A program made the translations under genes and the position numbers. A stretch of DNA of 64,000 nt, taken from Eukaryota sp. TZLM1-RC (taxonomy: Eukaryota > Protista > Metamonada: BaSk clade). Location of the stretch: contig JAUPSS010000005.1 in assembly GCA_040285825.1 (NCBI GenBank), positions 1,736,001-1,800,000 on the forward strand. Direction: 5' to 3'. This document shows, piece by piece, positions 15,263 through 56,391 of the stretch. Numbering within the stretch: position 1 is the stretch's first letter; the number at the start of each line of letters is the position of its first letter. Under the pieces are notes generated by a model. It did not search any database. It had not been told where the DNA came from and worked only from the letters and a program-made list of their open reading frames with translations.

Positions 15263-15381
15263 GTGGAAAATAGCAGAATTGTTGTGTCGTAGTGCTTATT
15301 GAGCATGGTTGGTAGGTATCTTTGACAGATAGTTCATTATTTCCACCAAAAACAGAATTAAACATGGTTATTTACATTTAT

Positions 15382-18164: not shown

Positions 18165-21100
18165 TTAGATTTATCAATATCTGGAGACATAGAAAGTAAC
18201 ACTGGGCTGATTGGTTGGAAGATGTTCATTTAACTAGGTTTCTTTCTTCTTTATTGAATGAATATTCTCATGATTATGTTCACTTGTGGAAACCAGAAGA
18301 TGTTCAAGAATATTTGATGCAACCAACTTCAGATTCGTTTGAACATTCTGGTATTTTTTAACGTTCTTTTAGAGAACCCAATTTGCTTCCAAACATTATC
18401 TACTTACTCCCTTTTCCGACATTTATATTTTTTGTTCCAGTAAGTATAATGTTCGTGGGTCTCACTGGTGTCTTTTGATAATTGAGTTTCAACCTAACAA
18501 GACGCCATAGGGTTACTATATAGACGGTATTGCTACTGAACATTGGTTTCTTCCAATTAAAGAATTTATCAATAATTTGACTGGAGGGAATATTACCTTA
18601 TTTCTAAATTGCAATAGATTGAGTCAGCGAGACAGTCACGATTGTGGTGTATGGACTTGTTATTTTGCTAGACGGTAATTACTTTGATATCTGAAGGAAG
18701 TTTTGATTTATTTGAACTGCATGATAGGCTGAATCATTCTCACATTTATCAGAAAATGTATGAATTAAGAATACAAAGATTTAGTGATACAATAAGAGAT
18801 CATCAAGTTGAAAGTAAAAAGAGAAAGTGCAAAACTACATCAACTCCTCGTTTAAACAGGAATAGACAAGAGATTCCCATCCATCACTTGAACAATGCAA
18901 TAGTAAAAAAACTGCTCCATCAAAACGGAAAAAACAATAAAGAGCACTAAACCCCAAATCTGTGTAGAAAATACAATGTTGATTCTTGACAGCAAGAAAA
19001 TTTTGCAAAAAAAGCATTTTCTTTGCTCAAACAGGTCCTGCCGAGTCGTGGTGGTTTTAAGCCTGAATCTTTGATTAAGTTGACATCAAAGACCACTAAT
19101 CAAAATCTTTCTATGGTGATGTGCATTGATTTTGCACATATCAGGATGGTTAGCTTTACCAAAATCAGAAAAATCTATTTCTCCCAACTAATCAGATTAT
19201 CAACAAAATAAGAAAAGATGATTCAAATCTTTTGAAAAGAAAAACTCATGAAGAGTTTAATGAATGCATTTCAGATCAGAAAGTGTTTTTTATTCCCGAT
19301 TGTTGTTGATAGGTCTGACCAACACAATTTCTTTTTGGAAAGCCAATATTCGTTACTATTGAAGATGAGTTCCCAACTTAAATCTCTACCTGAAACTGAT
19401 ATTCATGTTCAGGCAGAATTATTCTCTAATGAAGAAATTTTGCTTCGTAGATTTTCAAACCTTATTGGCAATCATCAACCATATTATTTATTGAATCGCA
19501 ATTTAATCAAAATTGATGTAGAAGTATTGAAAAATCGATTCAGTGAATTTAATTTACCATTTTTCACTGTTTTAAATGATCCAATGGTGGATGTACTCGA
19601 TCAACTTTCACCAAGATGGAGAGAAGTTATCATCAGAGAAAATGGATTTTAACTTTGAGATACTCTGGTATTTGCCACAAGATTTATTAAAATACCCTAT
19701 GGACATTGCTTAGGCAATCTGGCATATAAAATGATTAGTGAAAGGCAATTCAAACTTCATCAAGAATTTATCAATATTTTATTTGTTGATTGTTTAGCAA
19801 CTGATTCACTTAGACAAAATTTGATTCAATACGGGCTCCATGATTGTGTATTAAGTCTCAAACTTTTTGTATTGTTTCAAAAAGATAAATTCATTTTGCC
19901 ATCTTATAAAACCATTCGTGCCACCGTCTACTCAATGGTTTAACATTCAAATGTGATATCCAAATTGAAAGAAACTGCTTCAAAATATCAACAATTACGA
20001 ATTCATACTACATGTTGCTTGAAGATGTATTGACAGTTCCAATTTGAACGTAATTTACTACCACCACAAATATCTGCCAAATTATATGAATCTTTGATGG
20101 CCAGAATTCGTTATATTTCAGCTGAGTATTATGGGCAAAAAAATGGTAAAATCAAGAAGTGCATTTCCACAGGATTTTGAAGACTGTGTTTATGCTGAAG
20201 GAGTTTACACTTTAAGAAATACCTTTGAGCAACAAAAGTTAAAAACTTTAACTTATCTTGATCATTTAAAACACAAGGCTGAACAGTTTCCACGATTTCC
20301 AACTGATGGCTTCAGTAGACCATCTGAGTAAATGGCCCAGGTAATTTTTGCCAATTTTAAAAATAGTTTGCAATTAAATTATGTAAAACAATTCAATCGT
20401 TTATTAATGCTTTTTTAAAAAAAACCCGATGTAGAAAATGTGTTAGCAGAAATCCACAAGCTGGGTGGATACTCAACGCCATTATCTACAATTATTTCAC
20501 TATACAGAATTAGGCTTTGTCAATTCAAAAACTTGTATTTAGTTGATGATAGAGATTGCATGAATTCTTTGTTTCGCCATCCTGAAAATATTGCAGACCT
20601 TCTGAATGATGAACTTTTCGATTTATGTGAACAACATGATATAAGAAATAATGAACTTAGAGACATATTTGAAGGTCTTATTGAGCCTTTTACTTGTCAA
20701 ATAAAGAATTTGGTCACTGGCGAGAATTTAGTTGATAACATATTTCCAGTTGATATATATTTTCTTGCAGACACTCTTGAAAAAGATCATGAAATATTGC
20801 TAACACCAGCAATCACAATTGCCCATTATATTTCCAGTAGAGAGAGAAAACCTCATCATATTTCTCCTGTCTCAACCACTGTAGGACCTATTTTTCAATT
20901 GATACAAGAACAATATAAAAGAATTATTGAACAAACAATAATTGATAATTTATCACCTACATATACGCTGAAAATGTCCAATACACTAGCCCAAATTACG
21001 AAATTCAAACAAACCGAACAATTTGACTTTTGGTCTAATATTCTCGAGTTAAACCAACCAATGTTCAAACAGAAGAGCTATAAATTCAACAACATTATCC

Positions 21101-22103
21101 CCACATATAGATTTAATATTGCAGTGGAATTAGTTCGTCGATATTTGCAAGGTCAGAAATGTAAGCCAGACAACAAGGCTAGTATTTTTTGATTTATTTA
21201 TTGATAATGTTGATGTTGAAACTTTTCAAGGCAAACGAATTGTTTGTGATCCTGGAAAACGTAATTTATTGTATTTTGGTAGTAAAAGGCTGATCAAAAG
21301 TTGTCCATGGTTCCTGAACATGAAACCGAACAGCAAAAAAATAGTCGGGTGATGAATCAAGACAAGAAGTACAAATGGTTGAGAACAACCCAAACGTCTT
21401 GGTCTTTTAAAAGTAGAATTAATGAAAAACAAGGAAAATGGGACCCAAAATACTGTGGCAGAGGAAGACAGAAACCAGACAATCGAAAATGCAAACACCG
21501 AATAATCCACCTTTGATGCAAATTCAGAAACTTTTATAGAGTTCTCAAACTTTGAGGTTACATAACTTCGACAGGTTTAGTTGACAATTGACTTTTACAG
21601 TCTTGACTTGTGGAGCATTCATAAAATACAAGCTTATATTCACAAGCAAAAGACTGAAAGTTGTTTTTTAAAAAACCTTGTTCAAAAGTTTGGCAATCCA
21701 AAAGACATTATAATTCTAACGAAATGATTATGGTAAAAACGGTTCCAAGAATTTAAAACATCATAGGCCTACTCGAGGCATTGGATGGATTCAATTTCTG
21801 AAAAGGAATGGATTTTAAGTATTGATGATTAATGAGGCTTTCACTTCAGCAAAATGTCGTGTTTGTTTTGAAAAAGTTGCTGCGTTTTTAAAAGTAACAA
21901 ATCCCAGATTCTATAGAAGAGAAAAGACTCCTGTAACTACACGTCATGGTTCATTAGCTTGTAATAGTGAGAGTTGCAAATTCAGTAACAAAGGCTCAAC
22001 AAAGCTTTTCAATAGAAATAAGCTGGCTTGTCTGAATATGTTTGCAATTGCTGAAGCCAGAAAGAGTGGTAATGAAAGGCCCCAGTATTTGTGTTGTAGC
22101 TAG
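18165..22103 (+). pseudogene. Decayed polyprotein, copy 1: 2A-like peptide - Ulp1/C48 protease - PolB-type 3'-5' exonuclease - Fanzor1 nuclease
   Basis: Manual multi-frame translation. LDLSISGDIESNTG (18165-18206). WLED..GSHWCLLI..YID..QRDSHDCGVW (18212-18654). Exonuclease motifs MCIDFA, NRNLIKID, QYGLHDC. Fanzor KTIRATV, FWSNIL..KSYKFNNII.T, RuvC-I CDPGKRNLLY (21245-), QKFGNP, PTRGIG, RuvC-II INEAFTS (E at 21834), CRVC..NP..HGSLAC..C zinc finger, RuvC-III FNRNKLACLNM, RPQYL. Many stops and frameshifts. Confidence 0.85.
18209..18678 (+). pseudogene. Ulp1/SENP-like (C48) cysteine protease domain within Fanzor locus 1
   Basis: DWLEDVHL start. His (CAC 18463), YIDG Asp, Gln (18625) and Cys (18643) all lie in one frame; internal stops present. 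Confidence 0.8.
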
Positions 22104-22205
22104 TTTTTGTAATTATTCCAGACGAAAATTGATCTTGCACTTGTGGGGAATTTCCATAAAACAGGAATGTGATTTTATTTTGTTCAACTTAAAACATTAG
22201 GGCAA
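22090..22205 (+). ncRNA. Candidate Fanzor omegaRNA scaffold / element right end
   Basis: Lies immediately 3' of the Fanzor stop, where Fanzor/TnpB omegaRNAs are encoded. Hairpin ttgtggg-gaatt-tccataa (22141-22159) enclosed by aattattcc (22111-22119) / ggaatgtgatt (22164-22174). Boundaries are inferred. Confidence 0.4.
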
Positions 22206-24988: not shown

Positions 24989-25439
24989 TGAAAATTTTGA
25001 AACAAAATTTTGAATTTACCCTTTTGATTAGTTCTGAAAAACTATTAAATATACTCCTTATTTTTCATTGATCAAACTTTCCTTGAATAATCTGAACGTC
25101 AAAACACTTGAACAACTGCAAATTAACACACAGGTTAACATCATTAGGTTGAGACAAAAACTTCAGCAAGAAGTATGTTTACCTTTCAACTAAACATTCG
25201 GACTATCTCAGCTTCATGTAGTGTGAGCTCCAGAGGTGGTAGACAGTAAAACGTCGGTACAGTTCAATCTGGTGGAGCATTAAGTAGAATAAATGCAGTA
25301 AATGTGATCAGTATAGTAATAATGACCGAACATGCAGTTGTTCTGTGGTATTTAAGACAACAATAAAATAGTAATGATTTGAATAAACAAAAATCCAATA
25401 AATAAACGAATAAATGATTTGAGAACAATTCCTTTTTAA

Positions 25440-28400
25440 CTAGTTGATTGATGTCAACACTGATCTACTCCGAATCATGTTCTTTCATCACCAAATTTTG
25501 GTGATATTACTTTTCACTAAATCGTCTGTTCTCTGGCAAGCAGCTTTTTGTGGTGGCGAAAACAATTTGTTTTTGAATTTTTTTTTCTTCCTCTACATAT
25601 AACCGTTTAACTTAAAACCTGGCTGAACTGAGATCATTGCTTCTATTCTTTCTTGTTGATGTCTGAATCAGTTTCTGATTCTAATGGAGTCAAAAGAAAG
25701 AACGATAGTCAACAAGATGCTCAAGACGTCCTTTCCACCTCTCCTCCTCAACCTCTTCTCTCTTCATTTTTGGACAAAAAAAATTCTGATCAAGAATTTT
25801 TAGACAATCACGATGAAAAAAAAGTTTGTTCAAAAACAAAGCCACGCTCCTACAGATGCTCAAAGTGTCGACAACAGGGACATAATGCTCGAACATGCCC
25901 CAATGTTGGAAACAATGATGCGGCAAATTCTGAAACAAAATGTAAAAGAAAATTTATTAGAAGGAAAGAGTCTAAGGTAGAACCCATAAATAATGCTCCA
26001 CAAGTTGTTGCAAAACCAGTTAGTAATCGATTGAAGCACAAAACTTGCAACACTTGTGGTATTTCTTTTAGAAAAAATGCAAAAGGAAAAACTTCTGATT
26101 GCTGCTTGAAATGCCGCATAGTTGATAACTACCATCCTCCTATAAGAATACCTCAAGAAATTCATCCGACCAAATGCAATGAATTTGCTTTCGTTTTTCA
26201 AAGATTTTTGGATCAATTATGTAAAGGAAAGTATGCTATCAATATTATTTGGGAATTTTTTGGTTCTTTTTGTCCTCCTTTTGAACAAAATTTCGTTAAT
26301 ATTTCCGAAGATTTAACTAATATAGCACCGAGAAATCAGTCATCCGAGAAATTAAGTAAAATTTTTGAAGACAAATGCTTTGACAACAAATGGTCCAAGG
26401 CTTTGTCAGCTTTAAGTCCCGGAGTCAAAGCACCGAACAATGAAAATACAGTAGATAAACTGAAAATACTTCATCCTTATGAAGACCCTATTATGGATCA
26501 AAATTTTTACGGCACATACTGGGAAAATTATCCATTGATGCCATCAGAAGTTTTTTCGGTTATCAAAAAGAGACCTCGTGGTAAGTCTGCCGGACTTTCT
26601 GGTATTACTATTGATCATGTAAAAGCCGCGATTATTTCTTCAGAAGATTGCCTTGGTTTATTGACCAAATTTTTCAACCAAATATTATCTGGTCAACGCA
26701 AGTACCCAGAAGAATTAAGAAGTTCTCGTTTGACTGCACTTGTCAAAAATTCAAAAATGGATGTTCGTCCTATTGCAGTCTCTGAGAGCTTACATAATAT
26801 TTTTTCTGCGTGTTGCTTAAGAAGGTTCAATGAAAAAGCTAAAAAGATTTTATTACCCTTTCAATATGGTATAAATACTACAGATGGAGTCTCTTCAGCG
26901 ATTTTTGCTACTGATGTCTTATTTCGTCAAAATGAATCCAATGTTTGCATGTCATTGGATTTTAGTAATGCTTTCAATTCGCTAAGTCGTCGCAGTATCC
27001 ATGGTGCTCTATTGCAATATATGCCAGAATTAATACCATATTTTCAATCAACATATTGCACATATTCTAATTTACATTTTGGTAACAACATTTTGATTTC
27101 ATTAAGTGGCGTAAAGCAAGGAGATCCGTTAGGACCTCTTTTGTTTTGTTTGGCCATTCATCCTATTCTACTGCAAATTCAAGAGATGTTTCCTTCACTA
27201 AAAATGATTGCATATATGGATGATGTTGTGCTTATTGGTGAATTAAATATTGTGAAAAAAGCAACTGTATGTTTTAAAGAATTATTTACCAAAATTGGTC
27301 TCCGACTTAATTTACTTAAATGTGTTTTGTTATCGAATTCTCCAGTTTCCACAATAATTGATGATATTGAAATTCAAGCCAAATTATATTCAATTGATGC
27401 TATTCGTCATTTGGGTTCGTTTTTAGGAAATAATGATGAAATTACCAAAAAATTGTTTGAAAAGTTGAACTCAATTTCTGACAAAATTGACCGAATGATG
27501 AATTTAGATATAAAAAAACACATCAAATTTACCATTATAAGACTGTGTTTTAGTTCCAATTTTAATCATATATTTCGATCTACAAATCCTCTCGTCACTA
27601 GACCTTTGGCTCAAAAGTTTAATGAGTTACGTGCAAAAGTTCTGTCTCAATTACTGGGATGTAAAATGTTTCAAATTCCAGATCATGCTTACCTTAGTCC
27701 ACAATATGGTGGTTTAGGGTGGACGAAGGCTTCTATTCTTACCTCGTGTGCTTTTGTTGGTGGATGCAGAAATGCAATCTTTGAGTTCTCCGAAAGATTT
27801 GCAGATTGGGAAGATTTATTGATGACAACGCAAAGTTCCACTGTTTTTGCATTAAATGAAGAAATTTCAAGAATTGATGTAGAAAAATGGGGTCGATGTT
27901 TTCCCCAATCATTCAATGGCAATATACCAGAAAAAAATGTTTTAAATTTGAAGTATACTCTTCGAACATTACAGAAAAGATTGACTGGAATGTATGAAAA
28001 AGATCTTTATAATAATATTTGCAGCTCGGCTGTTTTAAATCAAGATCTTCACTCATTGTTATTGGAAAAGGGTGTTTGTGAAAACAAGGTGTCAGATTCT
28101 TCACTTTTTGTAACCATTGTACCACGAAGATTTGGATTGTGTGCTACTAATGAAGCATTTGTAACAAAAATGAGATTATATTTGAACATCCCCATTAACC
28201 AATTATTATCAAAAGAAAAATGTATTTGTTCGAATTCACCTCAACTCACTTTGCGCCATGCTCTAAATTGCTCTAAATTGATAACTTATCGTTCTTCATT
28301 ACATGATGCTGTTAGAGACACTGTTTTCAATATGGCACAAACTGCAAGGATATCGTGTATCAAAGAGCCCCTGCTGAAAGAAACACTTTCTCTAAATAAT

Positions 28401-30045
28401 TTTGGTTCTGATGATAGAGGTGATGTATACTGTGATTGGATTGATAATTCTGAAGCTATTGTTGACTTTGTCTCATGTAATGTTGCAAACGATACTTTGG
28501 TTCACAGAAGAAAACTTAATCCTGTGGCTGCTCTGGATTTTTAAAGCAAAAGAAAAACATAGAAAATATGATAAAGAAATTGAAGATGCAAATATCGATA
28601 GAAATACACAGCTGGTTTTTATTGCTTTCCCATTTTCGATAAATGGAAGATTATCAGTTGAAGCAGAAACTTTTTTGGATGACTTCCAAAAAATGGTGAA
28701 AGAAAAAACAATGAAAAGATTTGATATTTTTTTATGGCGTTCACGGATTCAATTTGCCATTATTAATAGATTACCGCGGTTTTTCAATCGAATTAGAGAA
28801 GCTTTAGCTAGACAGCAAGCAAATCAAGATTTTGTAGAGGAAATCTTGGTTTAATGATAGTCGTCCCATTAGTTATGATTCAATTTAATCAAGTGTGCAA
28901 ATTCAATAAATTAACATAATTTTGCAACCGTTTTCCAAATGGTGATGATTTACTGAATTCTACAAGTAATAATTATTTAAGAGACCTTGAAAATGTCCTT
29001 GATTGGTTGCCCGCTGAAAGTTGGAGTAAAAGTTTTTCCGTTTATGTACAGCAAATACCACCCTGAACACTTCTAAATTTGAGGTATAGTGTAAAGGTAT
29101 TGCAACAAAATGAGGAATGATTTTTGAAGGCTTGGATTTTATATATTTGTCCCGGCTCCGCCAAAGATGATAATATCGCTTTCGCCAACTTTTCTGTTAG
29201 ACGCTCAGAACAGTTCTCCTTCGTGTTTAATTACTCAACTTCTTCAAATTTATGGTATTCTTTTAAGTGATACCACATTTTCTTATACAATGCGCCGTCA
29301 ATATCTTATTTAGCCTGATAGCGTGCCTCATAATTTATTTTCCACATGTGGATCAAAAACTTCTCCAAATCACCTTTTTAATTGTAAACACTTCATTACT
29401 TTTCGAGCAAAAGTTCATGATGCAGTAAGTGATGTACTATACTGTATGTCAAAATCCTACAGAATTGTTGCCTATTCAGAACCATTACTCTCTACTTTGT
29501 TTGGCGAAGATATTTTGTGTTTGTTTGGTCGTAATGGAACTGATTTAATGCTTGACGACGTTGAAGGGACGACTAGCATTACTGATGTGAGGTGTACGGA
29601 TGTGTGCAATAATTCTTTCATACCATCAGCTCAGTCAAAACACAAGAATCCACTATCTGTTGCTAAAAACACTTAAATATAAAAAATAAATATTGATAAA
29701 TATTTAATACTTAGATAAATGTAAAGCACAATGGTTTTCTTTGAATGCTGAATCGCAAACTCATTATGTGCTTGCTACATTTCTTTTTCCCTACATGGCT
29801 CCTTTGGACCACTTGCTGTATCTATCTTGGATGATTTTGTTGAAATTGTGAAACAACATACAAGAAGAATTTTTGACAAAATGTTCTGGCAGAACAGAAT
29901 AGTATTTCCAATTTTTAAAGGTGTTGCCCTTTTGTTATTTTTTGCTTTGTTATCTCTTTGTGGGTTTTATGAGAGCAATACTTCCATTAAATTCTTTTTG
30001 GCTGATTTGGAGTATGAATATGCGGAAGTCTAAGATGATTGGTTA
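25440..30045 (+). mobile_element. Old CRE-like element (family C), split into 25440-25581 and 28918-30045 by the young family A insertion
   Basis: The left piece encodes SPNFGDITFTKSSVLWQAAFCGG.N.VFEF. The right piece resumes CNRFPNGDDLL..YLRDLENVLD..HLFNCKHFITFRAKVHDAV..WQNRIVF. Confidence 0.75.
25582..28917 (+). mobile_element. Near-intact full-length CRE-like RLE non-LTR retrotransposon (family A), single ORF ~1064 aa with one +1 frameshift
   Basis: ATG at 25659. CSKCRQQGHNARTC knuckle, CxxC..CxxC, RT (RPIAVSE, QYG, DFSNAFN, GVKQGDPLGPLLF, AYMDD), GGLG, CIC..HALNC, HDAVRD, RGDV..VDF, KHRKY. Extra T in the T5 run at 28538-28542 versus T4 in the 39452 copy. Confidence 0.93.
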
Positions 30046-30411: not shown

Positions 30412-30495
30412 CGAGCCTTAGCTCAGTTGGTAGAGCATTCGACTGTAGATGTTGTAGTTATCGAAATGTCCTGGGTTCAATTCCCAGAGGCTCGA
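30412..30495 (+). tRNA. tRNA-Tyr(GTA) with an 11-nt intron (30449-30459)
   Basis: Acceptor stem cgagcct/aggctcg, discriminator A, D arm gctc/gagc, anticodon stem ttcga/tcgaa with GTA at 30445-30447, T arm ctggg-ttcaatt-cccag, and a T-run downstream. Confidence 0.95.
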
Positions 30496-32426: not shown

Positions 32427-33767
32427 TTTTTTTATGAAATTGTTTATTGTCAACGCTAACAAAACATAAGCAAAAAAAACTAGAACTCAATATCCTCAAT
32501 ACACGCATCAACATCATCAAATCTTTTAAGCGCGCAATTTTCATACTCTATTCCTAATTGTAACAGTGCTTTGGTCAAAATTTCTGGAATTGCATTAAGA
32601 ATACTAAAAACAATTCTATTGTGCCAGAAATTGAAGTTCAATTCTTTTTCTGCTCTTTCTTTTATTAAACTTCTGAAACCTTCGAGAAATTTAATGCCAG
32701 ATATTCCAATGTTACCAAAAAGAGAAACAGCAAATGAAACCAGCTGATACTTGACATGTTCAAAACGTGCTAGCTGAGATAAGGGTTCATTGTACTTTTT
32801 TGATTTTGCTCTTTTCAGCAAAGCAAAGAGGAGTTTCATCTTTTTTAGCAAAATCAATTGCTGTGTCTATACAAACATCCACAGTGACAACATCAACAAC
32901 TTTGATCACACCATCAGACCCAGGGTTATTTAAATCAGCACGGCGTTTCCCAAAAGTATTTTCATCTTCATTTTCAGATGACAACCTTCGCACAAGTGGT
33001 TCTACAAAAGCTTCAATGTGATAACTTTTGCACATAGCGTATAGTTGGTCTCTAACAGCATCGTGAACAACTGAGCGATATGTAATATTAAATTTGCAAT
33101 TAAATAAATGATTCAGATTGATAAGCTGACCACAACGACAAATCAAATCATTTGGCACACTACATGGCCACAGGAAACACCTCATCCTGAAGGCAGTTGT
33201 CTATTGAGGATCATTTAATAATAAACCACGTATATTTGGAATCTGGGAAATGAGACAACTTGAGCTACTTTCCATAAGATCAATTAGAAAGTTTGCAAAA
33301 ACGGGATTATTCTCTTTAGCCAAGCTAAGACGAACAGTGAAATCTAAGTCTTCAAAAAATTTCAAGATCTTTTTCTGCAATTTAGCATATGCAAATTTCA
33401 AGGAAATCAAACTCCTGGGAGGAATTTCTTGAATATCAACAGAACAGCATTTGGACCATATGTGAGGAAAGATGCATTCAATTTCACTCTGCAAGGACAC
33501 TAAATAGTCACTAACACAACATTCTATTAAATGCGGGTTTTCAGGAAAACGTTTCAAAAATTCAAAAACGAAATTTTTGCATCCACCGATAAATGCAGCT
33601 TTACACAAATATTTAGATTTGTGAAAATCCAGGCCTCCCAATTCTGTGCTGCAAAAAATATGACTGGGTCAATAAGAAGAATCAATGTCAAGCAAATTAG
33701 CCAAAAATTTTGTTCTTAATTCATTGAAAATTCTGCAAAATTAAAGAGATATAGATGGTGATGTTGA
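32427..33767 (-). mobile_element. 5'-truncated CRE-like element (family D) with a short A tail
   Basis: GGLDF, CRC..HLFNC, HDAVRD, RRAD..VVDV, KSKIKKY, WHNRIVF. TSD-like ttccataaagt (32416-32426) / ttctataaagt (33768-33778). Confidence 0.85.
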
Positions 33768-34599
33768 TTCTATAAAGTCAATTCAAGATTAAGCATACCT
33801 TCCTAGATCGGCTAAATGTTGAGATCAATTGGGACGTTCGATTGGTTCATTCTTCCAACCCACCAATGTATCGGTTGTTTCTAGTTGAAAAATAAATGAT
33901 AATATGAATATTAGTTTTCAGCAAATAGTTGAAAGGCATGCTGAAGACCGGCTTTGTTGTTTCGAAACATTATCGACTTTCAGCGACTATCCCTCCCTTG
34001 TTGAAGTTTTGTTTTAACGATATTAAAATGAATTAATTACATCATTCCAATCCATTTTCAGGCTTTTGTTCAATTTTTAGCTGAACATTGTGATTTTTGT
34101 ATTCTATTTCCTTTTTATGTGACACCTACCTGCTTTTCGATCCTATGACTTCTCTCTTGTTAACCATACCATGTCTTTCGTTGTGGGACTACTTTGGTTA
34201 TAAGCCAATGGTTTGGAAGGAATGAAATTGTTTCAATGATTAAACATAATAATATATTTTATGTGTTTTGAATTTTAAACGAAATCTGGTCTGAAATTAG
34301 GTCGGCCGACTCAAACACGACTGTCCCTTCTACTGGTTCAAGTGTAGTATCTACATTGTTCAAAATTTAACGCTTTCATTGTGGGAGTAATTTATTGAAT
34401 TAAACATAAAATTTGACCTTTTCGATGTTTCAACTATCTAATTGAGACTGAATTAATCATTCAAATCAAATTAATCAAAAATGGCTTACATGTAAAAAGG
34501 TATCCAGGGTGTAGCTTTGAAATTTGAAACTAAATAAAGATTACTCAATATTTTATTGAGAAAACTACTGAAAAACAACACCACGAAATTATAGAAAAT

Positions 34600-35744
34600 G
34601 TATTTAGTGAATTTGCACACTTAATTTAATTAACTCATAACTAATGGGACGACTATCATTGAACCAAGATTTCATCTACAAAATCTTGATCTGCTTGCTG
34701 TCTAGCTAAAGCTGCTCTAATTCGATTGAAAAACCGAGGTAATCTATTAATAATGGCAAATTGAATCCGTGAACGCCATAAAAAAATATCAAATCTTTTC
34801 ATTGTTTTTTCTTGCACCATTTGTTGCAAGTAAAACAAAAAAGTTTCTGCTTCAACTGATAATCTTCCATTTATCGAAAATGGGAAAGCAATAAAAACCA
34901 GCTGTGTATTTCTATCGACATTAGCCTCTTCAATATCTTTATCATATTTTTTATGTTTCTCTTTTGCTTTGAAATCCAGAGCAGCCGTAGGATTAAGTTT
35001 CCTTCTGTGAACCAAAGTATCATTTGCAACATTACATAAGACAAAGTCAACAATAGCTTCAGAATTATCAATCCAATCACAGTATACATCACCTCTATCA
35101 TCAGAACCAAAATTATTCAGAGAAAGTGTTTCCTTCAGCAGGTGCTCTTTGATACACGATATCCTTGCAGTTTGTGCCATATTGAAAACAGTGTCTCTAA
35201 CAGCATCATGTAATGAAGAACGATAAGTTATCAATTTAAAACAATTCAGGGCATGGCGCAAAGTGAGTTGAGGTGAATTCGAACAAATACATTTTTCTTT
35301 TGATAATAATTGATTAATGGGGATGTTCAAATATAATCTCATTTTTGTCACAAATGCTTCATTAGTGGCACACAATCCAACTCTTCGTGGTACAATGGTT
35401 ACAAAAAGTGAAGAATCTGACGACTTGTTTTCACAAACACCCTTTTCCAATAACAATGAGTGAAGATCTTGATTTAAAACAGCCGAGCTGCATATATTAT
35501 TATAAAGATCTTTTTCATACATTCCAGTCAATCGTTTCTGTAAAGTTCAAAGAGTGTACTTCAAATTTAAAACATTTTTTTCTGGAATATTGCCGTTGAA
35601 TGATTGGGGAAAACATCGACCCCATTTTTCTACATCAATTTTTGAAATTTCTTCATTTGATGCAAAAACAGTGGAACTTTGCGTTGTCATCAATAAATCT
35701 TCCCAATCTGCAAATCTTTCGGAAAACTCAAAGAAAATCCAATC
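34600..35744 (-). mobile_element. 5'-truncated family A CRE-like copy
   Basis: High identity to 27780-28910. TSD ttatagaaaat at 34589-34599 and 35745-35755. Confidence 0.9.
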
Positions 35745-35848
35745 TTATAGAAAATCCAATACCACAAAAAACTATGAACTATCTGTCAAAGATACCTACC
35801 AACCATGCTCAATAAGCACTATGACACAACAATTCTGCTATTTTCCAC

Positions 35849-36205
35849 ATGGCATCTAGACAACGTTCAGAACCAACCCAAGGAACTTTACAATTCTACG
35901 AAGGTGGCTCCATTCTTCCATTTGGTCTCGGTAGATCACCCAAAGGTGGTTGTTTAGTAGACCTCGATAACCAGTCTATAGCCAAGCAAAACCTCACCCC
36001 TGAAGAAAAGGAAAAGTTTAGAGAAATAAAGTTTGCTGGAGGTGAAGAAGGACCAGGTCATCACGTCTACCCTGGTGGAAGAATTCTACCTCAGAGTCTT
36101 GGTGGTGGTAAAGCACCTCCAGGAGGAGTAGACGTAGATGAACAAGGTAACATCACCTTATTAGACCCCGAGAAAGCTAGGAAGGCTGGATATGAACTTG
36201 AATAG
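35849..36205 (+). CDS. 118-aa orphan protein, copy 2 (inverted duplicate of 14906..15262)
   Basis: Identical translation. The shared block covers ~35774-36215 and ~14895-15337. Confidence 0.75.
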   Translation: MASRQRSEPTQGTLQFYEGGSILPFGLGRSPKGGCLVDLDNQSIAKQNLTPEEKEKFREIKFAGGEEGPGHHVYPGGRILPQSLGGGKAPPGGVDVDEQGNITLLDPEKARKAGYELE

Positions 36206-36328
36206 CTGAGTTGTAAGTAATCGTATAACCAATATTTATCTATTAAACAACTTATAAATCAAATAATTCAATCACAAATAATGGTTTTTTTTTGAAAAAA
36301 CCAAAATTATACAATTTTATTATTAACC

Positions 36329-39273: not shown

Positions 39274-39451
39274 GGTAACTCAAAAAATGCATGTTTCTAT
39301 ACATATTAATAAATTTTTATATCTATTTTTATTATCTAGCTGTTGTTGATGATACTGTCATTGTTAATTCTGTTACAGCTAGAGGGTAAATCGAGATGAT
39401 GCTGATGACTACTAATAGAGATACATTTTATACGAATTAGATACCATGGTG

Positions 39452-41633
39452 CACTTGTCAAAAATTCAAAAATGGATGTTCGTCCTATTGCAGTCTCTGA
39501 GAGCTTACATAATATTTTTTCTGCGTGTTGCTTAAGCAGGTTCAATGAAAAAGCTAAAAAGATTTTATTACCCTTTCAATATGGTATAAATACTACAGAT
39601 GGAGTCTCTTCAGCGATTTTTGCTACTGATGTCTTTTTTCGTCAAAATGAATCCAATGTTTGCATGTCATTGGATTTTAGTAATGCTTTCAATTCGCTAA
39701 GTCGTCGCAGTATCCATGGTGCTCTATTGCAATATATGCCAGAATTAATACCATATTTTCAATCAACATATTGCACATATTCTAATTTACATTTTGGTAA
39801 CAACATTTTGATTTCATCAAGTGGCGTAAAGCAAGGAGATCCGTTAGGACCTCTTTTGTTTTGTTTGGCCATTCATCCTATTCTACTGCAAATTCAAGAG
39901 ATGTTTCCTTCACTAAAAATGATTGCATATATGGATGATGTTGTGCTTATTGGAGAATTAAATATTGTGAAAAAAGCAAATGTATGTTTTAAAGAATTAT
40001 TTACCAAAATTGGTCTCCGACTTAATTTACTTAAATGTGTTTTGTTATCGAATTCTCCAGTTTCCACAATAATTGATGATATTGAAATTCAAGCCAAATT
40101 ATATTCAATTGATGCTATTCGTCATTTGGGTTCGTTTTTAGGAAATAATGATGAAATTACCAAAAAATTGTTTGAAAAGTTGAATTCAATTTCTGACAAA
40201 ATTGACCGAATGATGAATTTAGATATAAAAAAACACATCAAATTTACCATTATAAGACTGTGTTTTAGTTCCAATTTTAATCATATATTTCGATCTACAA
40301 ATCCTCTCGTCACTAGACCTTTGGCTCAAAAGTTTAATGAGTTACGTGCAAAAGTTCTGTCTCAATTATTGGGATGTAAAATGTTTCAAATTCCAGATCA
40401 TGCTTACCTTAGTCCACAATATGGTGGTTTAGGGTGGACGAAGGCTTCTATTCTTACCTCGTGTGCTTTTGTTGGTGGATGCAGAAATGCAATCTTTGAG
40501 TTCTCCGAAAGATTTGCAGATTGGGAAGATTTATTGATGACAACGCAAAGTTCCACTGTTTTTGCATTAAATGAAGAAATTTCAAGAATTGATGTAGAAA
40601 AATGGGGTCGATGTTTTCCCCAATCATTCAATGGCAATATTCCAGAAAAAAATGTTTTAAATTTGAAGTACACTCTTCGAACATTACAGAAAAGATTGAC
40701 TGGAATGTATGAAAAAGATCTTTATAATAATATTTGCAGCTCGGCTGTTTTAAATCAAGATCTTCACTCATTGTTATTGGAAAAGGGTGTTTGTGAAAAC
40801 AAGGTGTCAGATTCTTCACTTTTTGTAACCATTGTACCACGAAGATTTGGATTGTGTGCTACTAATGAAGCATTTGTAACAAAAATGAGATTATATTTGA
40901 ACATCCCCATTAACCAATTATTATCAAAAGAAAAATGTATTTGTTCGAATTCACCTCAACTCACTTTGCGCCATGCTCTAAATTGCTCTAAATTGATAAC
41001 TTATCGTTCTTCATTACATGATGCTGTTAGAGACACTGTTTTCAATATGGCACAAACTGCAAGGATATCGTGTATCAAAGAGCCCCTGCTGAAAGAAACA
41101 CTTTCTCTGAATAATTTTGGTTCTGATGATAGAGGTGATGTATACTGTGATTGGATTGATAATTCTGAAGCTATTGTTGACTTTGTCTCATGTAATGTTG
41201 CAAACGATACTTTGGTTCACAGAAGAAAACTTAATCCTGTGGCTGCTCTGGATTTTAAAGCAAAAGAAAAACATAGAAAATATGATAAAGAAATTGAAGA
41301 TGCAAATATCGATAGAAATACACAGCTGGTTTTTATTGCTTTTCCATTTTCGATAAATGGAAGATTATCAGTTGAAGCAGAAACTTTTTTGGATGACTTC
41401 CAAAAAATGGTGAAAGAAAAAACAATGAAAAGATTTGATATTTTTTTATGGCGTTCACGGATTCAATTTGCCATAATTAATAGATTACCGCGGTTTTTCA
41501 ATCGAATTAGAGAAGCTTTAGCTAGACAGCAAGCAAATCAAGATTTTGTAGAGGAAATCTTGGTTTAATGATAGTCGTCCCATTAGTTATGATTTAATTT
41601 AATCAAGTGTGCAAATTCAATAAATTAATTTTT
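39452..41633 (+). mobile_element. 5'-truncated family A CRE-like copy with an intact RT-RLE frame
   Basis: Nearly identical to 26735-28910. Open 698-codon frame. TSD ataccatggtg at 39441-39451 and 41634-41644. Confidence 0.94.
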
Positions 41634-42227
41634 ATACCATGGTGGAAAGTAGCAATCATTTTGAAATCGCAATCAGCATGTCAGACAACTCTCAGCGAGA
41701 TTTTCCTGACATTTCACATTCTTCTAACATCATGCAGCAAAAGGAGAAAAAGGATAACGAGGTAACGGACTTAGTTTCCACCTCCTCCTTCAACCTGTTC
41801 TTCACAGAACAGCAGAGTTGTTCATCCCAAATTCCTCAGTCGGGAACAGTCATCCTGCTTTACAGGAATAAAAGGAAGGTCAGAGCCTCGATTTCCTATT
41901 GGAATGTCGTTTTGATCCTTCCATGGGGGTAGAGTACACCACTTTTTTGAGACATCAAGTGAGTCATGATATGGGTGCTGTTGAATCAGCCATGGTCATA
42001 ATCATTTTAGATATAGGTTGTTGTTCTTGTTTGTGTTTTGTTTTGAATTGTTATTTTGATGTTTTTGAGTTTGTTGTTTGTTGAGGTTTAGGTACTTGTA
42101 CTGTAGATCTGGGATGTTGTGCTTAATTTGTTATTTTGACAATGTTGAGTTTGATGATTATGTTTATAGTTTGTGTTTTCTATCCAGTAACTTGCATCAT
42201 CTTCTATCAACAAACCCATTTTCTGTT

Positions 42228-44752
42228 GATTCAAAAATGGACGGAGATGTTGAAACAAATCCTGATCCCAAAAAGAGGAGATCCAATTGCAAATCAACTC
42301 CTCCATTAAAAATAATCAGAAAAGCGGTTTTCTACCAACAAACATCAAAGCGTAAGCGTAAAAAAGAACAAAAATGCACTGAACCGAAAAATTTGTATTG
42401 AGAAAACAATGTTGAATATCGAGAGCAGGAAAATTTTGGCAAAAAGAAAAATTGAAACCGAGTATGGTCAAAACAGTTGAGCCAAGTTTTAGTGGCTTCA
42501 AGCCTGATACTTTGATTTGATTCAAATCAATGACCCCAAATCAAAATCTTCCCACTGTTATGTGCTTCGATCTTGAAACATTTCAGGGTGGTCATTTTCA
42601 CCAAACTCATGATGGCCAATTTCTTCCTCCTGACAAGATTTTCAACAAAAAGAGAAAAGAGTATGCAATTCCTTAGAAAAGGAAAACTGATGAGCAAAAG
42701 AATGAGTATATTTCAGATCAAAAAATCTTTTTAATTTTCATTGTTTTTGGACGATTTGACTGCCATAATTTCTTTTCAAAGAGTAAATATTCACTTATTT
42801 TGAGAATCAGTCCTCAAGTCAGCAGATTACCAGACATTGATATGGATATTCAGGGAGAAATTTTCTTACAAAAAAATCTTGCTTCCTAGGTTTTTAAACA
42901 TTATTGGTAATCATCAACCTCATTGTTGTCTCAATCACAAGTTAATGCAGTTTGATTCACAGATTTTGAAAAATAGATTAAATTATTTTGGTTTATCATT
43001 TCCCACGGTTCCAGATGATACAGCAATTGATGTACTCAATCAACTTTCTTCAAGATGGAGGGAAGTTGTCATCAGGAACAATGGCTTTTTTCTTTTAGAC
43101 ATACTGGTATTTGCCAAAAAATTCATAAAAGTACAATATGGTTATAGTTTAGGCAATCTGGCATATAAAACGATTAGTGAAAAGCAATTCAAACTTCATC
43201 AAGAATTTATCAATATTTTATTTGTTGATTGTTTAGCAACTGATTCACTTAGACAAAATTTGATTCAATACGGGCTCCATGATTGTGTACTATGTCTCAA
43301 ACTTTTTGTATTGTTTCAAAAAGATAAATTCATTTTGCCATCTTATAAAACCATTCGTGCCACCGTCAACTCAATGGTTTAACATTCAAATGTGATATCC
43401 ATATTGAAAGAAACTGCTTCAAAATATCAACCATTACGAATTCAAACTACATGTTGCTTGAAGATGTATTTACAGTCCCGATTTGAACGTTATTTAATAC
43501 AATCACAAATATCTGCCAAACTATATGAATCTTTGATGGCCAGAATTCGTTGTATTTCAGCTGATTATCATGGGCAAAAAATGGTAAAACCAAGAAGTGC
43601 ATTTCCACAAGATTTTGAAAACTTTGTTTATGGTAGAGGAGTTTAAACTTTAAGAACTACTTTTGAGCAACAAAAGTTAAACAAAACATTGAGTTATCTT
43701 GATCACTTAAGACACGCGCCTGAACAGTATCCACGATTTCCAACTGATGGTTTCAGTAGACCATCTGAGTATATGGCCCCAGTATTGTTTGCCAATTTTG
43801 AGAGTAATTTGAAATTAAACTATGAAAAACATATTAATCGATTTATCATTGTTTATTTTGACAAACCAGATGATGAAAATGTGTTAGCAGAAATGCACAA
43901 GCTGGGTGGATATTCAACGCCATTATCCTCAATTATTTTACTATATAGATTTAGGCTTCGTCAATTCCAAAACTTGTTTTTAGTTGATGATAAAGATTGC
44001 TTGAGTTCTTCGTTTCACCATCCAGAAAATATTTTAGACCTTCTGAATGATAAATTTTTCGATTTATGTGAACAACATAATATAAGAGGTAATGAACGTA
44101 AAGACATATTGAAAATCTTATTGAACCATTTACTTGTCAAATTGAGAATTTGGTCGCTGACGAGAATTTAGTTGATAACATATTTCCAGTGGATATACAT
44201 TTTCTTCCAGACGCTGTAGAAAAAGATCGTCAAATATTTCTAAAACCAGCAATTACATATGCCAAATATATTTCCAGTAGAGAGAGAAAACCTTATCATA
44301 TTTCGCCTGTTTCAACTACTGTAGGTTTTGGATATTTTCAATCGACACAAGAACAATATGGAGAATTATTCAACAATTATTAATTGATGATTTATCACCT
44401 ACACAGACGCTAAAAATGTCCAATACACTAGCCTAAATTACGCAATTCAAACCACCTGAACAACTTGACTTCTGGTCCAATATTCTAGATTTAAATTAAC
44501 CAATGTTCAAACAGAAGGGCTACGAATTCAGCAACATTATCCATACAGATGGATTTAACATTGCAGTAGAATTTGTTGGTTGAGATTTGCAAGGTTAGAA
44601 ATGTAAGCCAGACCACAAAGCTAGTATTTTTAATTTATATATTGATGTTGTTGATGTTGATACTTTTCAAGGCAAACGAATTGTTGTTTGTGATCCTGGA
44701 AAATGTGATTTATTGTATCTTAAGAGTAAAAAAACGGATCAAGAATTAGCCA
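42228..44752 (+). pseudogene. Decayed polyprotein, copy 2: 2A-like peptide - PolB-type 3'-5' exonuclease - Fanzor1 (truncated after RuvC-I)
   Basis: DSKMDGDVETNPDP (42228-42269). ExoI VMCFDLET (D 42569, E 42575), ExoII NHKLMQFD (D 42954), YSLGNLA, ExoIII QYGLHDC (43266-43286). Fanzor NLKLNYEKHINRF, IHTDGFNIAVEF, RIVVCDPGK (D 44692). Homologous to 18815-21310. Confidence 0.85.
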
Positions 44753-46430
44753 TGTCTATCTGATATTGCTTCATTTTTGCTAAAAAACCAAGGTAAACAT
44801 GAACTGATTGTGTTGGTTATCACTGCAGTGACCAAAGGAAAAGCATTATTAAATTACAAAACCTGAATTTAAACTATTGCCACGTCATCACAAGTGATTT
44901 GATGTTATCCAACATCTAACACTACCCCTTCTTCACTTTCTTTTTTACCGATGGGGAAATACTTGTAAATGGATTGAGTACAACTTCATACGACTCTTCT
45001 TCTAAAAAGTCACTACCGAAAACATTCAGCGCGTCTCCAAGGCATGAGTCAGAACAGTTATTAACATCTGCTTCACTAACAGCACAAAATACAGTGTTTA
45101 CCTGTTCTAGTTTTTTAAAACTATGAACATGAGCGGATCTTTTGATGTCGAAAGTTTGGGCAGTATCATTGTGAAAAGGACAATTATCAGCAATATGACC
45201 AATCTTATGGCATCTGTAACAAGTTTTGGCAGCAATATCTGTATCTCTGACGGCAGAACAAGTATTTGTATTTTAGTATTAGATAACGATTCAGACCAGA
45301 CTTTAGATCTATCATGGTCGACAATTTCGTCGGTAGCAATTTGCCCAAAGGTTTTGAAATCAGGTAACAATTGATCATTAATATGGACACAACGGATTCA
45401 GGTCAGACCTTTAGGAGCAATACCAGCAGCAATTCGTTTCATAAAAACATTATTTGGGATGGCAAGGCCTTCAGCCTTTTCCTTCACCTTCAGAAAGTTT
45501 CTGAGGTAATTATTCATTTTTTCTTTGGCACCAGAAATCTTGACGCTCAATTTCAACCGAGAGACCGTTCGTTGAAAGCTTCATATGATAAAAATTGTTT
45601 AGCAATTTCAAATAGTTGAGTAACACACTATCGGAAGTCTTTACCTTAGATTCATACAACTTTAGAGACTTCAAAATAAAAAAATCTACAGAGAGTTTTA
45701 AGGAAACAACTTTGGTGCTATCAGTGACAGACTAATACACTTCAAACTCGGTTAAAAACATACATACATCTTCCTCGGACAGCGAGGTCAGATAAGGACG
45801 GTCGACAGGACGCATCGCACGGCTTTATCAAAGGCAGGTACAAGAACAGTGACGGGTCTGGAACAGGAACAGAGACAGGGACAATAACGTTATTGTTGGT
45901 TTCCACTGCAATGACCAAAGGAAAAGTTGTATTAAATTACAAAAACTAAACTTAAACTATCGCCACGTCATCACACGTGATTTGATGTTATCCAACATCT
46001 AACAATTGAGCGAAAAAGGCGCAAGAAAAAACCTACTTTATCATAAATGCCTGGTTTTCTAGAGACGAAAAATTGCTTCAATATTGTCATCAGGATGATC
46101 TTTGATTTTTTAAGGCTATTAACTATTTCTTGCATTCTGATACACAAAAACTATTAAAATTAACTTCAATGAAAATATCAAATGTGGACTCACAAAATGA
46201 GTTCCTGACCAAAGTGTTCAAACAGTTATTCAAGGGATGATGGTTATTATTGACAAAATTGTATGAAGAACATATTTATTACTCAAATTGTCTTACTTGG
46301 ATTGCTTTTTCAAATATGAAAAACCAGTGGTGTTTTCCAAAGAACTTATTAAAGCCACTGTGTGGGTGGTCAAAACATTTGACAATAAATATTGTCGTTT
46401 AAAACAAGAAAAAAAAAGTTTGATTTATTA
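44753..46430 (+). pseudogene. Fragment of a divergent exonuclease-Fanzor1 fusion (ExoIII plus Fanzor N-terminus), split by the LTR element
   Basis: CLSDIASFLLKNQGKHEL (44753-44806). After the LTR insertion: KLLQYCHQD (Y at 46082), then with one frameshift IKCGLTK*VPDQSVQTVIQGMMVIIDKIV*RTYLLLKLSYLDCF..FSKELIK (46177-46353), a typical Fanzor1 N-terminal pattern. Confidence 0.6.
44811..46004 (-). mobile_element. 1194-bp non-autonomous LTR element (TRIM-like or internally deleted)
   Basis: 111-bp direct repeats at 44811-44921 and 45894-46004 (11 mismatches), TGTT...AACA termini, 4-bp TSD ATTG (44807-44810 / 46005-46008). Polypurine tract aaaaaagaaagtgaagaaggggtag abuts the minus-strand 3' LTR. 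Confidence 0.88.
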
Positions 46431-46439
46431 CTTTCTGAA

Positions 46440-47490
46440 AAATAAACACAAAAATTAAAATTCTAAATCTTCATATCCCAAATCAACCAACAAAAATTGA
46501 CTGTAAGTTGTTCCTTCATAAAAACGATTAAGAGATAATAAAGCAGAAGACAATAACGATACAACACCTTTGATAATTAAAAATACAATTCTGTTCTGCC
46601 AAAACGTTTTGTCAAAAAATCTTCCTGTACACTGTTTTACAATTTTAACAAGATCATTCAAAAACGATAAAGCAAGTGGTCAAAACGTACCATTTAAGAA
46701 AAAACAAATGGAAAAAGGACATAATGAGTGTGAGATTCAGCATTCAAGAAAAACCAACTTTGCTCTATATTTATCAGCTTTAGAATTTTCGGCACCAGAA
46801 AGCGGATTCTTGTGTTTTGACTAAGCTAATGATATGAAAGAATTACTACACACATCAGTAATGATAGTGGTCTCATCAAGTCCTTCAAGCTTTAAATGTT
46901 ACGACCAAATGAATTCAAAGTGTTTTCATCAATAAAACGAGAAAGTAATGATTCTAAATAGGAGATAATTGTATCAGATTTAGACATACAATAGAGCTAA
47001 TCTCTGACTGCATCATGGACTTTTGATCGAAAAGTAATAAAATGTTTACAGTTAAACATATGATTTGCAGAAATTTTTGATCCACATTTGCAAATCAAAT
47101 TATGAGGAAGTTTATTGAGCCAAAAAAAAACATCGAAGACGCATTATACAAGAAAATGTGGTATCATCTAAGAGAAGACCATAAATTTGAGAAATCTGAG
47201 TTATTAAATAAGATGAAGAACAAGTTTAAGCATCTAACAAAAAATTTGCGAAAGCGGGATTATTTTCTTTGGCCGAACCAAGACGAACATTAAAATCCAA
47301 GCCTTCACAAATTATTCTTAATTTTTGTTGCAATTTTTTAACACAATACCTCAAATTTACTAGTTTTCTAGGTAATATTTTCTGCACATTGTCGGGAAAA
47401 CATTTACTCCAAATTTCAGGAGGCAAACAATCAAGGGAATTTTCAAGGTCTCTTAAATAATGTTTTAAACAAGATGAAAGAACAAGTCTT
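46440..47490 (-). mobile_element. Degenerate 5'-truncated CRE-like element (family C)
   Basis: YLRDLENSLDCLPPEIWSKCFP, CKC..HMFNC, HDAVRD, WQNRIVF; homologous to 28960-30033. Confidence 0.8.
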
Positions 47491-54289: not shown

Positions 54290-56200
54290 ATATTTTTGAT
54301 TGCTTTGTTGAATTACTTGTTCAGAATTGTTGCCTTGTTTTCAAACAACATATTGCACAAAATCTGATCTGCATTTTGGTGATTCTATTTTGAAATCATC
54401 AATTGGTGTTAAGCAAAGAGATCTTTTAGAACCTCTTTTGATTTGTCTGGCCATTCATCCTATTTTATTACCAAGTCAAGAATTGTTTCTTTTACTAAAA
54501 ATGATTGCCTTTATGGATGACGTTGCTATTATAAGTGACTTAAAATTTTTCAGAGGAGCAAGTAAATCTTTCAAAGAATTATTTAACAAAATTGACCTTC
54601 AACTTAATTTACTAAAATGTGTTTTACTTTCGAAATTTTCAGTTTCTACAATAGTTGATGGTAGTGAACAAGCCAAGTTTTATTCAACTGATGCTATTCG
54701 TCATTTGATTTCGTTCGTAGGTAGTAATGATGAAGTTGCCAAAGAATTGTTTGATAAGTTGAACTCATTTTCCAGAAAAAATAACCAATAATGGAATTAG
54801 ATTTACAGAAGCATATCAAATTTAACATTATAAGACTTTGCTTCGATTCCAGCTTTAATCATTTATTTAGATCTACAAATCCTCTCATCTCTAAGCTTTT
54901 GGCCCAGAAAGTTCAATGAATTACGTGCAAAGGTTTTATCACATCTACTAGGATGTAAAATGTCTCAAATTCCTGATCATGCTTATCTTAGTCCACACTA
55001 AAGCGGTTTAGGTTGGACAAAAACCTCAATTCTTACTTCATGTGCTTTTAGGGGTGGATGCAGAAATGTAATATTTGTGTTTTTTGAAAGATTTGCAGAT
55101 TGAGCAGATTTATCAATAACAAAACCAAGTTCTACTATTTTTGCATTAAATGAAGAAACTTCAAAAAATGATGTAAAAAAATGGAATCAATGTTTTCCCC
55201 ATTCACTCATAGGCAATATTTCTGAAAAGAATTATTTAAATTTAAAATACACTCTTCGAACGTTACTGAAGTGACTGACTGGAATGTAAAAATGATTTTT
55301 ATAAAAATATATGCAGCTTGGCTGTTTTAAATCAAGATCTTCGCTCGTTGTTATTGGGAAAAGGTATTTGTGAAAATCAGTCATCAGATTCATCACTGTT
55401 TGTAACCATTGTGCCACGAATATTTAAGCTGTGTGCTGATAATGAAACGTTTGCAACAAAAATGAGACTATATTTAAATATTCCCATTAATCACTTATTA
55501 TTAAAAGAAAAATGTATTTGTTCGAGTTCAACTCAGCTCACTTTGCGACATGCCCTGAATTGTTCGAAATTGATAACTTATCGTTCTTCATTGCATGATG
55601 TTGTTAGAGACACTGTTTTCAATATGGCACAAACTGCAAGAATTGCGTGTATCAAAGAGCCTCTGCTGAAGGAAACACTGTCATTGAATAATTTTATTTC
55701 TGATGATAGAGGTGATGTATACTGTGATTGTATTGGGAACTTTGAAGCTGTTGTTGACCTTGTCTCATGTAATGTTGCAAATGATACTTTGGTTCAGAGA
55801 AGAAAACTTAATCCTGTAAAACCTTTTGAATTTAGAGCCAAAGAAAAACGTAGAAAATATGACAAAAAAATTGAAGAAGCTAATACTGATAGAAATAGAC
55901 CACTTGGTTTTAGTGTTTTTCCATTTTCGATAAACGGAAAATTATCAATAGAAGCAGGAACTTTTTGAATGATTTCCAAAATATGGTTCAAGAAAAAACA
56001 ATGAAAAGATTTGATGTCTTTTTATGGCGCTCTCGAATTCAATTTACCATAATTAATAGATTACCTCGGTTGTTCAGTCGAATTAGAGAATCTTTAGCTA
56101 GACAGCAAACAGATCAAGATAATGTAGAGGAAATCTTGGTTCAATGAATTTCGTCTTATTAGTAATGAGTTTAATCTGTTCAGTGTGCAAGTTTAACAAA
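54290..56200 (+). mobile_element. Degenerate family A-related CRE-like copy
   Basis: GVKQRD, AFMDD, HALNC, RGDV, and a 3' UTR related to family A. Multiple stops. Confidence 0.85.
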
Positions 56201-56391
56201 TATTGTCAATTTTTGAGTCAAACATAATCATTTTTGAATAGAATTTGACTTTACGCTGAAGATTTAAGTACTGAAGTTCAAATCTATTAACTAAGTAAAT
56301 TCTTTCTAGGTAATCAGCATAAAATGTCCAAAACAGAGATACAATTAAAAAAACTTACTAAAATTTATCATAAATGTAACTAAATAATCCA

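Follow-up and report, generated by a model that had tools for sequence, protein, structure and literature searches.

Two decayed element copies in a 64,000-nucleotide stretch of DNA from Eukaryota sp. TZLM1-RC (the window) belong to a family whose intact open reading frame, as read from predicted protein sequences, appears to place a 2A-like motif, zero to two Ulp1 domains, a PolB-type DEDDy exonuclease without a polymerase palm, and a Fanzor1 nuclease in a single chain. Such an in-frame joining of exonuclease and Fanzor had been proposed from the window DNA and is borne out, being intact in many copies in related genomes. The 2A-like motif, the optional Ulp1 domains, the Asp-Glu-Asn (D-E-N) RuvC triad and a stop codon common to the two window copies went unremarked in that proposal. 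The combination of a Fanzor1 with a built-in PolB-type exonuclease is apparently an undescribed architecture, so far found only in Skoliomonas, the anaerobic flagellates of hypersaline and soda lakes that comprise the isolates TZLM3-RCL, TZLM1-RC and GEM-RC1, and of which TZLM3-RCL is the deepest branch (PMC11603281).

Architecture of the fusion

Sequence searches and cluster look-ups gave 61 proteins (15 of the 17 members of one relatives' cluster were taken in), from which the unrelated SH3 protein P0008 was dropped and the exonuclease-free Fanzor P0047 kept apart, leaving 59 counted gene models, whose organism names are Eukaryota sp. TZLM3-RCL, TZLM1-RC and GEM-RC1. In 18 of the 59, one chain holds the complete set of six exonuclease motif residues together with the RuvC D-E-N triad. 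All 18 come from TZLM3-RCL, and the models of this isolate are spread over at least 13 contigs of distinct length. Intact fusions of 940 residues are represented by P0019 and P0031. Among the rows covering each column, many of them near-identical copies drawn from only about seven independent subfamilies, the ExoI Asp is conserved in 35/35 and the Glu in 34/35, the ExoII Asn in 39/39 and the Asp in 38/39, and the ExoIII Tyr and Asp in 39/39. The subfamilies are mostly 21-57% alike; for their representatives, bar one same-subfamily pair, the figures are 25-57% for the exonuclease and 21-56% for the Fanzor part. Models without the exonuclease either start within Fanzor or are short fragments.

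The passage from ExoIII to Fanzor is ungapped in 37 of the 39 models with ExoIII, the exceptions being P0021, which skips this passage, and P0049, which the search pattern did not match. Neither a 2A motif nor a Gly-Gly was seen in the junctions inspected, the family's 2A-like motif lying further upstream. The relatives are predicted gene models, and P0001, which carries an RT, and P0010 and P0059, which carry a helicase, are chimeric away from the junction; at the junction itself the models match an uninterrupted run of window DNA with no gap, so an intron need not be invoked. Across the sequences the exonuclease-Fanzor pair appears fixed and the N-terminal module variable, since zero, one or two Ulp1 domains intervene between the 2A-like motif and the exonuclease. 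Separate trees of the exonuclease and the Fanzor have in common a well-supported P0045+P0015 group and a P0003/P0019/P0021 side. They disagree on the position of the window lineage, which has no firm support in the exonuclease tree, and neither settles the deep branching.

The exonuclease domain

PolB-type DEDDy exonucleases are defined by ExoI DxE, ExoII Nx3(F/Y)D and ExoIII Yx3D motifs. The profile match to PolB exonucleases that the original prediction named as a check is clear in the intact relatives, which match Pfam DNA_pol_B_exo1 (PF03104) above its cut-off with E 1e-10 to 1e-17, while the decayed copy 2 piece gives E 0.0015 and 18.4 bits, under the cut-off of 23. When a profile of 20 family members was searched, Pol delta was the top polymerase match (E 2e-12), followed by Pol II, alpha, T4/RB69, epsilon and herpes enzymes. 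Of 120 viral loci fetched by a polymerase motif, 75 gave a score with this profile, the highest being 39.9 bits, whereas yeast Pol delta scores 48.0. In a quick tree of the Skoliomonas exonucleases with 11 viral PolBs, cellular polymerases not included, the Skoliomonas sequences form one side (SH-aLRT 99).

The modelled exonuclease of P0002 (mean pLDDT 85) resembles 17 family-B polymerase chains with Z 15.2-19.1 (rmsd ~3 Å over 172-197 residues) and vaccinia polymerase with Z 12.3. Other DnaQ-fold enzymes score no higher than 12.5 (Exonuclease I 12.5, TREX1 10.9, RNase T 10.1), with RNase T, ERI/3'hExo, ISG20 and RNase D in the range 9-11, and Foldseek agrees with the family-B assignment. By structure the alpha, epsilon, delta, Pol II and herpes enzymes tie as donor. 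The domain shares with family-B proofreading domains the ExoI/II/III motifs, the PF03104 match and the fold, with Pol delta best by sequence, and differs from family-B polymerases in lacking palm, fingers and thumb and in having two extra basic helices after ExoI (residues 26-52 of the P0002 model). Indeed, as had been predicted, no palm follows: neither the intact relatives nor the family profile search gave a DNA_pol_B match, and Fanzor starts about 10 residues past the ExoIII helix. Sequence and model together indicate a PolB-type proofreading exonuclease from which the palm is absent, and the modelled fold favours DNA over RNA as substrate.

The Fanzor domain

The family profile matches SpuFz1 (2.6e-61), PpFz1 (1.7e-59) and GtFz1 (6e-27), and the best three PDB sequence matches and best seven Foldseek matches are all Fanzor1, with the enlarged REC and overall homology of that class. 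The whole-protein model, at pTM 0.43, gives no domain arrangement, and from it the exonuclease cannot be positioned relative to the strand that is cut. Both window copies carry DPG at RuvC-I, where Asp is found in 38/38 rows covering the column, and the C-terminally shifted RuvC-II Glu (32/33 rows), which aligns with that of SpuFz1, is followed by a C4 zinc finger (in copy 1 from 21834). RuvC-III, covered in four subfamilies, carries Asn in 30 of the 31 Skoliomonas rows that include the residue (one Ser, no Asp) and in copy 1, while P0047 has Asp. The literal 'RD' of the 2013 Bao-Jurka motif is absent from the family, as it is from GtFz1. The RuvC-III Asn does not mean a dead enzyme, because GtFz1 cuts with Asn at this position and the D606N change in SpuFz1 raises activity above that of wild type (PMC11423790); on the GtFz1 precedent the idea of an inactive RuvC was abandoned.

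Homology to the fungal Fanzor1 proteins SpuFz1 and PpFz1 (PDB 8gkh, 9cf0) is full-length, spanning everything between the first WED strand and the C-terminus (Foldseek E 1e-19), and extends to the DPG, the shifted Glu, the C4 zinc finger, and the multi-copy single open reading frame with no transposase inside. Unlike these two, the Skoliomonas form has a PolB exonuclease of about 250 residues in front, a 2A-like motif, optional Ulp1 and Asn at RuvC-III, and in its decayed window copies no inverted repeats or guide RNA stand out. GtFz1 (Guillardia theta Fanzor1; PDB 9cer) has the same D-E-N triad, and in the available portions of PMC10432273 no clear inverted repeats or transposase are reported for it either. 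It is more distant (E 6e-27), and its profile match is limited to the Fanzor part, with no exonuclease match. The Skoliomonas family adds a second natural D-E-N Fanzor lineage.

The two window copies

The window is gene-dense, AT-rich eukaryotic DNA that contains several CRE-type retrotransposon copies and uses the standard genetic code; an altered code was rejected because long host open reading frames are open in the standard one. The two element copies are 82% identical across the 2.4 kb that align (18923-21309 in copy 1, 42354-44754 in copy 2). Both are pseudogenes, with stops and frameshifts, and their features lie on the plus strand. Two DNA sequencing runs contain many pieces 80-99% alike along copy 2 and none across all of it; the sequencing runs listed include no RNA run.

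Copy 2 opens with an ATG and a degenerate 2A-like (StopGo) motif (42237..42269), in the same place as an intact NPGP in its close relative P0007, followed by a decayed basic Lys/Arg-rich linker (42270..42553) that resembles P0007 residues 11-55 and is a possible nuclear signal. The PolB-type DEDDy 3'-5' exonuclease domain (42554..43316), assigned from its motifs, Pfam and the P0002 fold, contains ExoI at 42566-42580, ExoII at 42933-42956 and ExoIII at 43269-43283. The four acidic residues and Tyr that copy 2 had been said to keep were all located on the translation, at 42569 (ExoI Asp), 42575 (ExoI Glu), 42954 (ExoII Asp), 43269 (ExoIII Tyr) and 43281 (ExoIII Asp); the ExoII Asn has become Lys. 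A TAG at 42674 and, between ExoI and ExoII, a frameshift near 42860-42875 interrupt the domain. The Fanzor1 that follows (43347..44754), delimited by the family profile against SpuFz1, is decayed and 3'-truncated; it begins with the first WED strand and breaks off shortly after RuvC-I (DPG, 44692-44700). Its starting Lys at 43347 is 26 codons past the ExoIII Tyr, the spacing first described. Further breaks come after the TAA at 43380, and similarity to copy 1 stops at 44754.

Copy 1 has a degenerate 2A-like motif (18165..18209, from comparison with P0018 and P0022), a decayed Ulp1/C48 protease domain (18210..18690; Pfam PF02902, and tblastn of P0018 with E 1e-5) and a decayed exonuclease domain (19113..19875; ExoI Asp 19128, ExoIII Tyr 19830). 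It is broken too, but its decayed Fanzor1 (19908..22103) is full-length, with DPG at 21248, RuvC-II Glu at 21834, the C4 zinc finger, RuvC-III Asn at 22017 and a stop at 22101-22103. Its ExoI Glu had been reported as changed to Ala. The residue is altered, but not by clean substitution: it sits at a 1-nt deletion, so the change is a frameshift. By position only, the two hairpins at 22101..22170 mark a candidate guide-RNA scaffold region. At this one decayed 3' end the hairpins are no better than shuffles (z-scores -0.18 to 0.37), and there is no Rfam match.

Both copies share a TAA (43380..43382 in copy 2), 11 codons inside Fanzor, which at face value would count against the fusion. It falls in a tract (43170..43547), spanning the exonuclease-Fanzor junction, that is near-identical in the two copies (dS 0.025, against 0.61 in the remaining exonuclease and 0.19 in the remaining Fanzor), and outside which they are 62-90% alike. 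The copies are therefore not independent at the TAA, the tract likely reflecting recent exchange between them by recombination or gene conversion. Since SpuFz1 homology begins upstream of the TAA codon, which lies within the Fanzor WED region that is also present in SpuFz1, the TAA interrupts Fanzor itself and is a lesion and not a gene end. The nearest database relatives, P0001 (66% identity) and P0002 (78%), have Lys at this position and their frame continues. A real stop at the junction of intact copies, named in the original prediction as evidence against a fusion, was looked for and is absent, the relatives' frame being open there. Between the window copies dN/dS is 0.45 in the exonuclease, which adds little because a shifted-frame control behaves similarly (0.56).

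Upstream modules and element ends

The 2A consensus is D(V/I)ExNPG/P. A 2A-like motif lies upstream of the domains in most subfamilies, exact in the P0007, P0018 and P0022 types, with Glu changed to His in the P0013 and P0045 types and degenerate in both window copies; it was not seen in the P0015 type. The NPG/P motif is that of 2A peptides (PMC5009743). Of the Ulp1 domains found between this motif and the exonuclease, copy 1 has one and copy 2 none. Those of P0018 (64 bits) and P0024 (73 bits) match PF02902 well over its cut-off of 20.7 and carry the His, Gln and Cys motifs, while that of copy 1 (E 0.00067, 20.0 bits) is just under it.

Around the decayed window copies no convincing terminal repeats were seen, and the scanned gene models contain no transposase domain family. 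In P0045, P0049, P0052, P0054, P0060 and P0003, tandem repeats upstream of the element open reading frame are read into the gene models, and these may mark the element's 5' end. Upstream of copy 2, the segment 41640-42230 has related pieces on several contigs of the DNA runs and may be a 5' part of the element or another repeat. At the point where copy 2 is cut off, a 111-nt direct repeat (44811-44921 and 45894-46004, 90%) surrounds about 1 kb with a minus-strand CCHC zinc knuckle, possibly an insertion of LTR-like type. In P0010 and P0059, both from TZLM3-RCL, exonuclease-Fanzor chains of two separate subfamilies are linked to HrpA-like DEAH helicases that are nearly identical to each other. 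Either the repeated element is larger than the fusion or these gene models are chimeric. Cys/His knuckle-like motifs are present in P0059 as well, and its N-terminus is common to P0003 and P0009.

Proposed role of the tethered exonuclease

We give about even chances to a reading in which the exonuclease tethered to Fanzor1 in intact relatives of this decayed, repeated Skoliomonas-type element would trim the 3' DNA end of a predicted RNA-guided cut. The upstream leader would come off by ribosome skipping at the 2A-like motif. Cleavage by the D-E-N RuvC would fall ~14-21 nt from the TAM of an empty target site, as with other Fanzor1s. The TAM-side 3' end would then bear a short tail mismatching the element-bearing template at the insertion point; by removing this tail, or at least by blocking simple re-ligation, the tethered exonuclease would steer repair towards copying the element back in. 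A proofreading domain is suited to such a task; when yeast repairs double-strand breaks, short 3' tails without homology are taken off by the proofreading exonuclease of Pol delta. A 3'-5' exonuclease could also shorten the 3' ends required for strand invasion and, if unchecked, hinder homing, and dispersal to new loci would need a transposase or another factor besides. Cutting by Fanzor1 14-21 nt from the TAM is described in PMC10432273, where copy-back from a sister template is a proposed TnpB/Fanzor role; the literature consulted describes what Fanzors do biologically as unknown. A more ambitious version, which we regard as doubtful, has the cut-and-trim enzyme driving a transposase-free element: a guided cut would be made, the 3' end pared to the insertion point and the element copied by host recombination, with a 2A-released polyprotein and SUMO proteases, possibly inside a larger helicase-bearing element.

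Somewhat unlikely, in our estimate, is that the exonuclease is cargo acting apart from cutting, for example in destroying the single-stranded DNA of rival retroelements or of viruses, just as the Ulp1 domains may counter SUMO-dependent silencing; the fusion would then serve only to bring it into the nucleus. The interchangeable N-terminal module, with its varying number of Ulp1 domains, the wealth of CRE-type retrotransposons in the window and the accessory exonucleases of other transposons (PMC3627910, PMC6338049) are all consistent with such cargo. However, Ulp1 comes and goes, yet the exonuclease is present in every sampled subfamily, at a fixed short junction. A role in maturing guide-RNA 3' ends or in trimming the element's transcript is unlikely. 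The guides of Fanzor1 are cut back to 15-20 nt (PMC11423790) and RNases occur among the DEDD enzymes, but the fold is that of a family-B DNA proofreader, with scores far exceeding those for RNase T, ERI/3'hExo, ISG20 and RNase D, and guide maturation needs no domain of this kind in other Fanzor1s. We think it quite improbable that the RuvC is weak or nick-only and that Fanzor mainly delivers the exonuclease as effector; the near-invariant RuvC-III Asn (30/31 Skoliomonas rows), set against the Asp of exonuclease-free P0047, would fit this, but RuvC-I Asp and RuvC-II Glu are retained, and the Asn form is active in GtFz1 and raises activity in SpuFz1 (PMC11423790). That the fusion is a gene-prediction artefact or a chance pairing of separate genes ended by the shared TAA is barely credible, despite the presence of that codon in both window copies and the visibly chimeric models (P0001 with RT, P0010/P0059 with helicase), as the model junction aligns ungapped to contiguous window DNA with no intron invoked and the TAA is inside the Fanzor WED region and the near-identical tract, where 37 models read through.

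The trimming of cut ends, our preferred reading, bears on a wider question. An active-looking end-processing enzyme kept on a nuclease across subfamilies ~30% alike asks what befalls the cut DNA ends, for which a D/E-to-A change in the exonuclease is a clean control. The existence of intact P0019 and P0031 means that the fusion is open to test now, and intact versions could yield a compact editor with a built-in exonuclease.

Distribution and comparison with other systems

A phmmer search of 1.84 billion representatives with a 170-residue exonuclease piece gave seven matches, six from Skoliomonas and the SH3 protein P0008. Word-indexed searches, which are insensitive and length-limited, gave 1, 6 and 7 matches, all from Skoliomonas except P0047. 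No relative was confirmed among viral contigs, a RuvC-III motif pattern found two viral and 12 metagenome loci of which none is a credible relative, and phage tblastn gave nothing. Literature listings and abstracts, with subscription journals and Repbase outside their coverage, contain no natural Fanzor-exonuclease fusion. The word 'exonuclease' is absent from the main text of PMC3627910, bioRxiv 2023.08.09.552727 and PMC10530073 and from the searchable supplements of PMC10432273 and PMC10530073, and 'Fanzor' is absent from the main text of the Skoliomonas genome preprint. Among the ESM Atlas matches listed there are plain Fanzor-like clusters (0.76, a lead only) and PolB-exonuclease clusters (0.92-0.95), and no exonuclease-Fanzor cluster.

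The role of Cas2-DEDDh is spacer trimming. This natural fusion (PDB 8fyc, by title) and the engineered Cas9-TREX2 (PMC13370227), in which the exonuclease is likewise 3'-5', also attach a DEDD exonuclease to CRISPR-type machinery. In contrast to the two of them, the Skoliomonas fusion is a natural one on a predicted RNA-guided nuclease of Cas12 type, and its exonuclease is PolB-type instead of TREX or DEDDh. Accessory DEDD exonucleases are likewise borne by mobile elements in the P and piggyBac transposons and LTR retrotransposons, and in the portions of PMC3627910 and PMC6338049 available none is reported on a Fanzor.

Other features of the window

A CRE-type RT/endonuclease retrotransposon is present in five copies (25632-28914, 34590-35734, 39409-41636, 54301-56202 and 61031-63070), two of them 99% identical, and a second, related family lies at ~6900-7800, 28970-30020, 32440-33580, 46470-47460 and 59890-61020. 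Copy 2 is found just downstream of a CRE-type copy, and the P0001 model joins such an RT to the same element. A 446-nt inverted duplication (14892-15337 and 35774-36219) is 99% identical. On the minus strand, an open reading frame at 23549-25015 shows by eye a DEDDy/WRN-like exonuclease motif pattern; it has no match to the element proteins by tblastn and is likely a host gene. A tRNA gene lies at 30412-30495.
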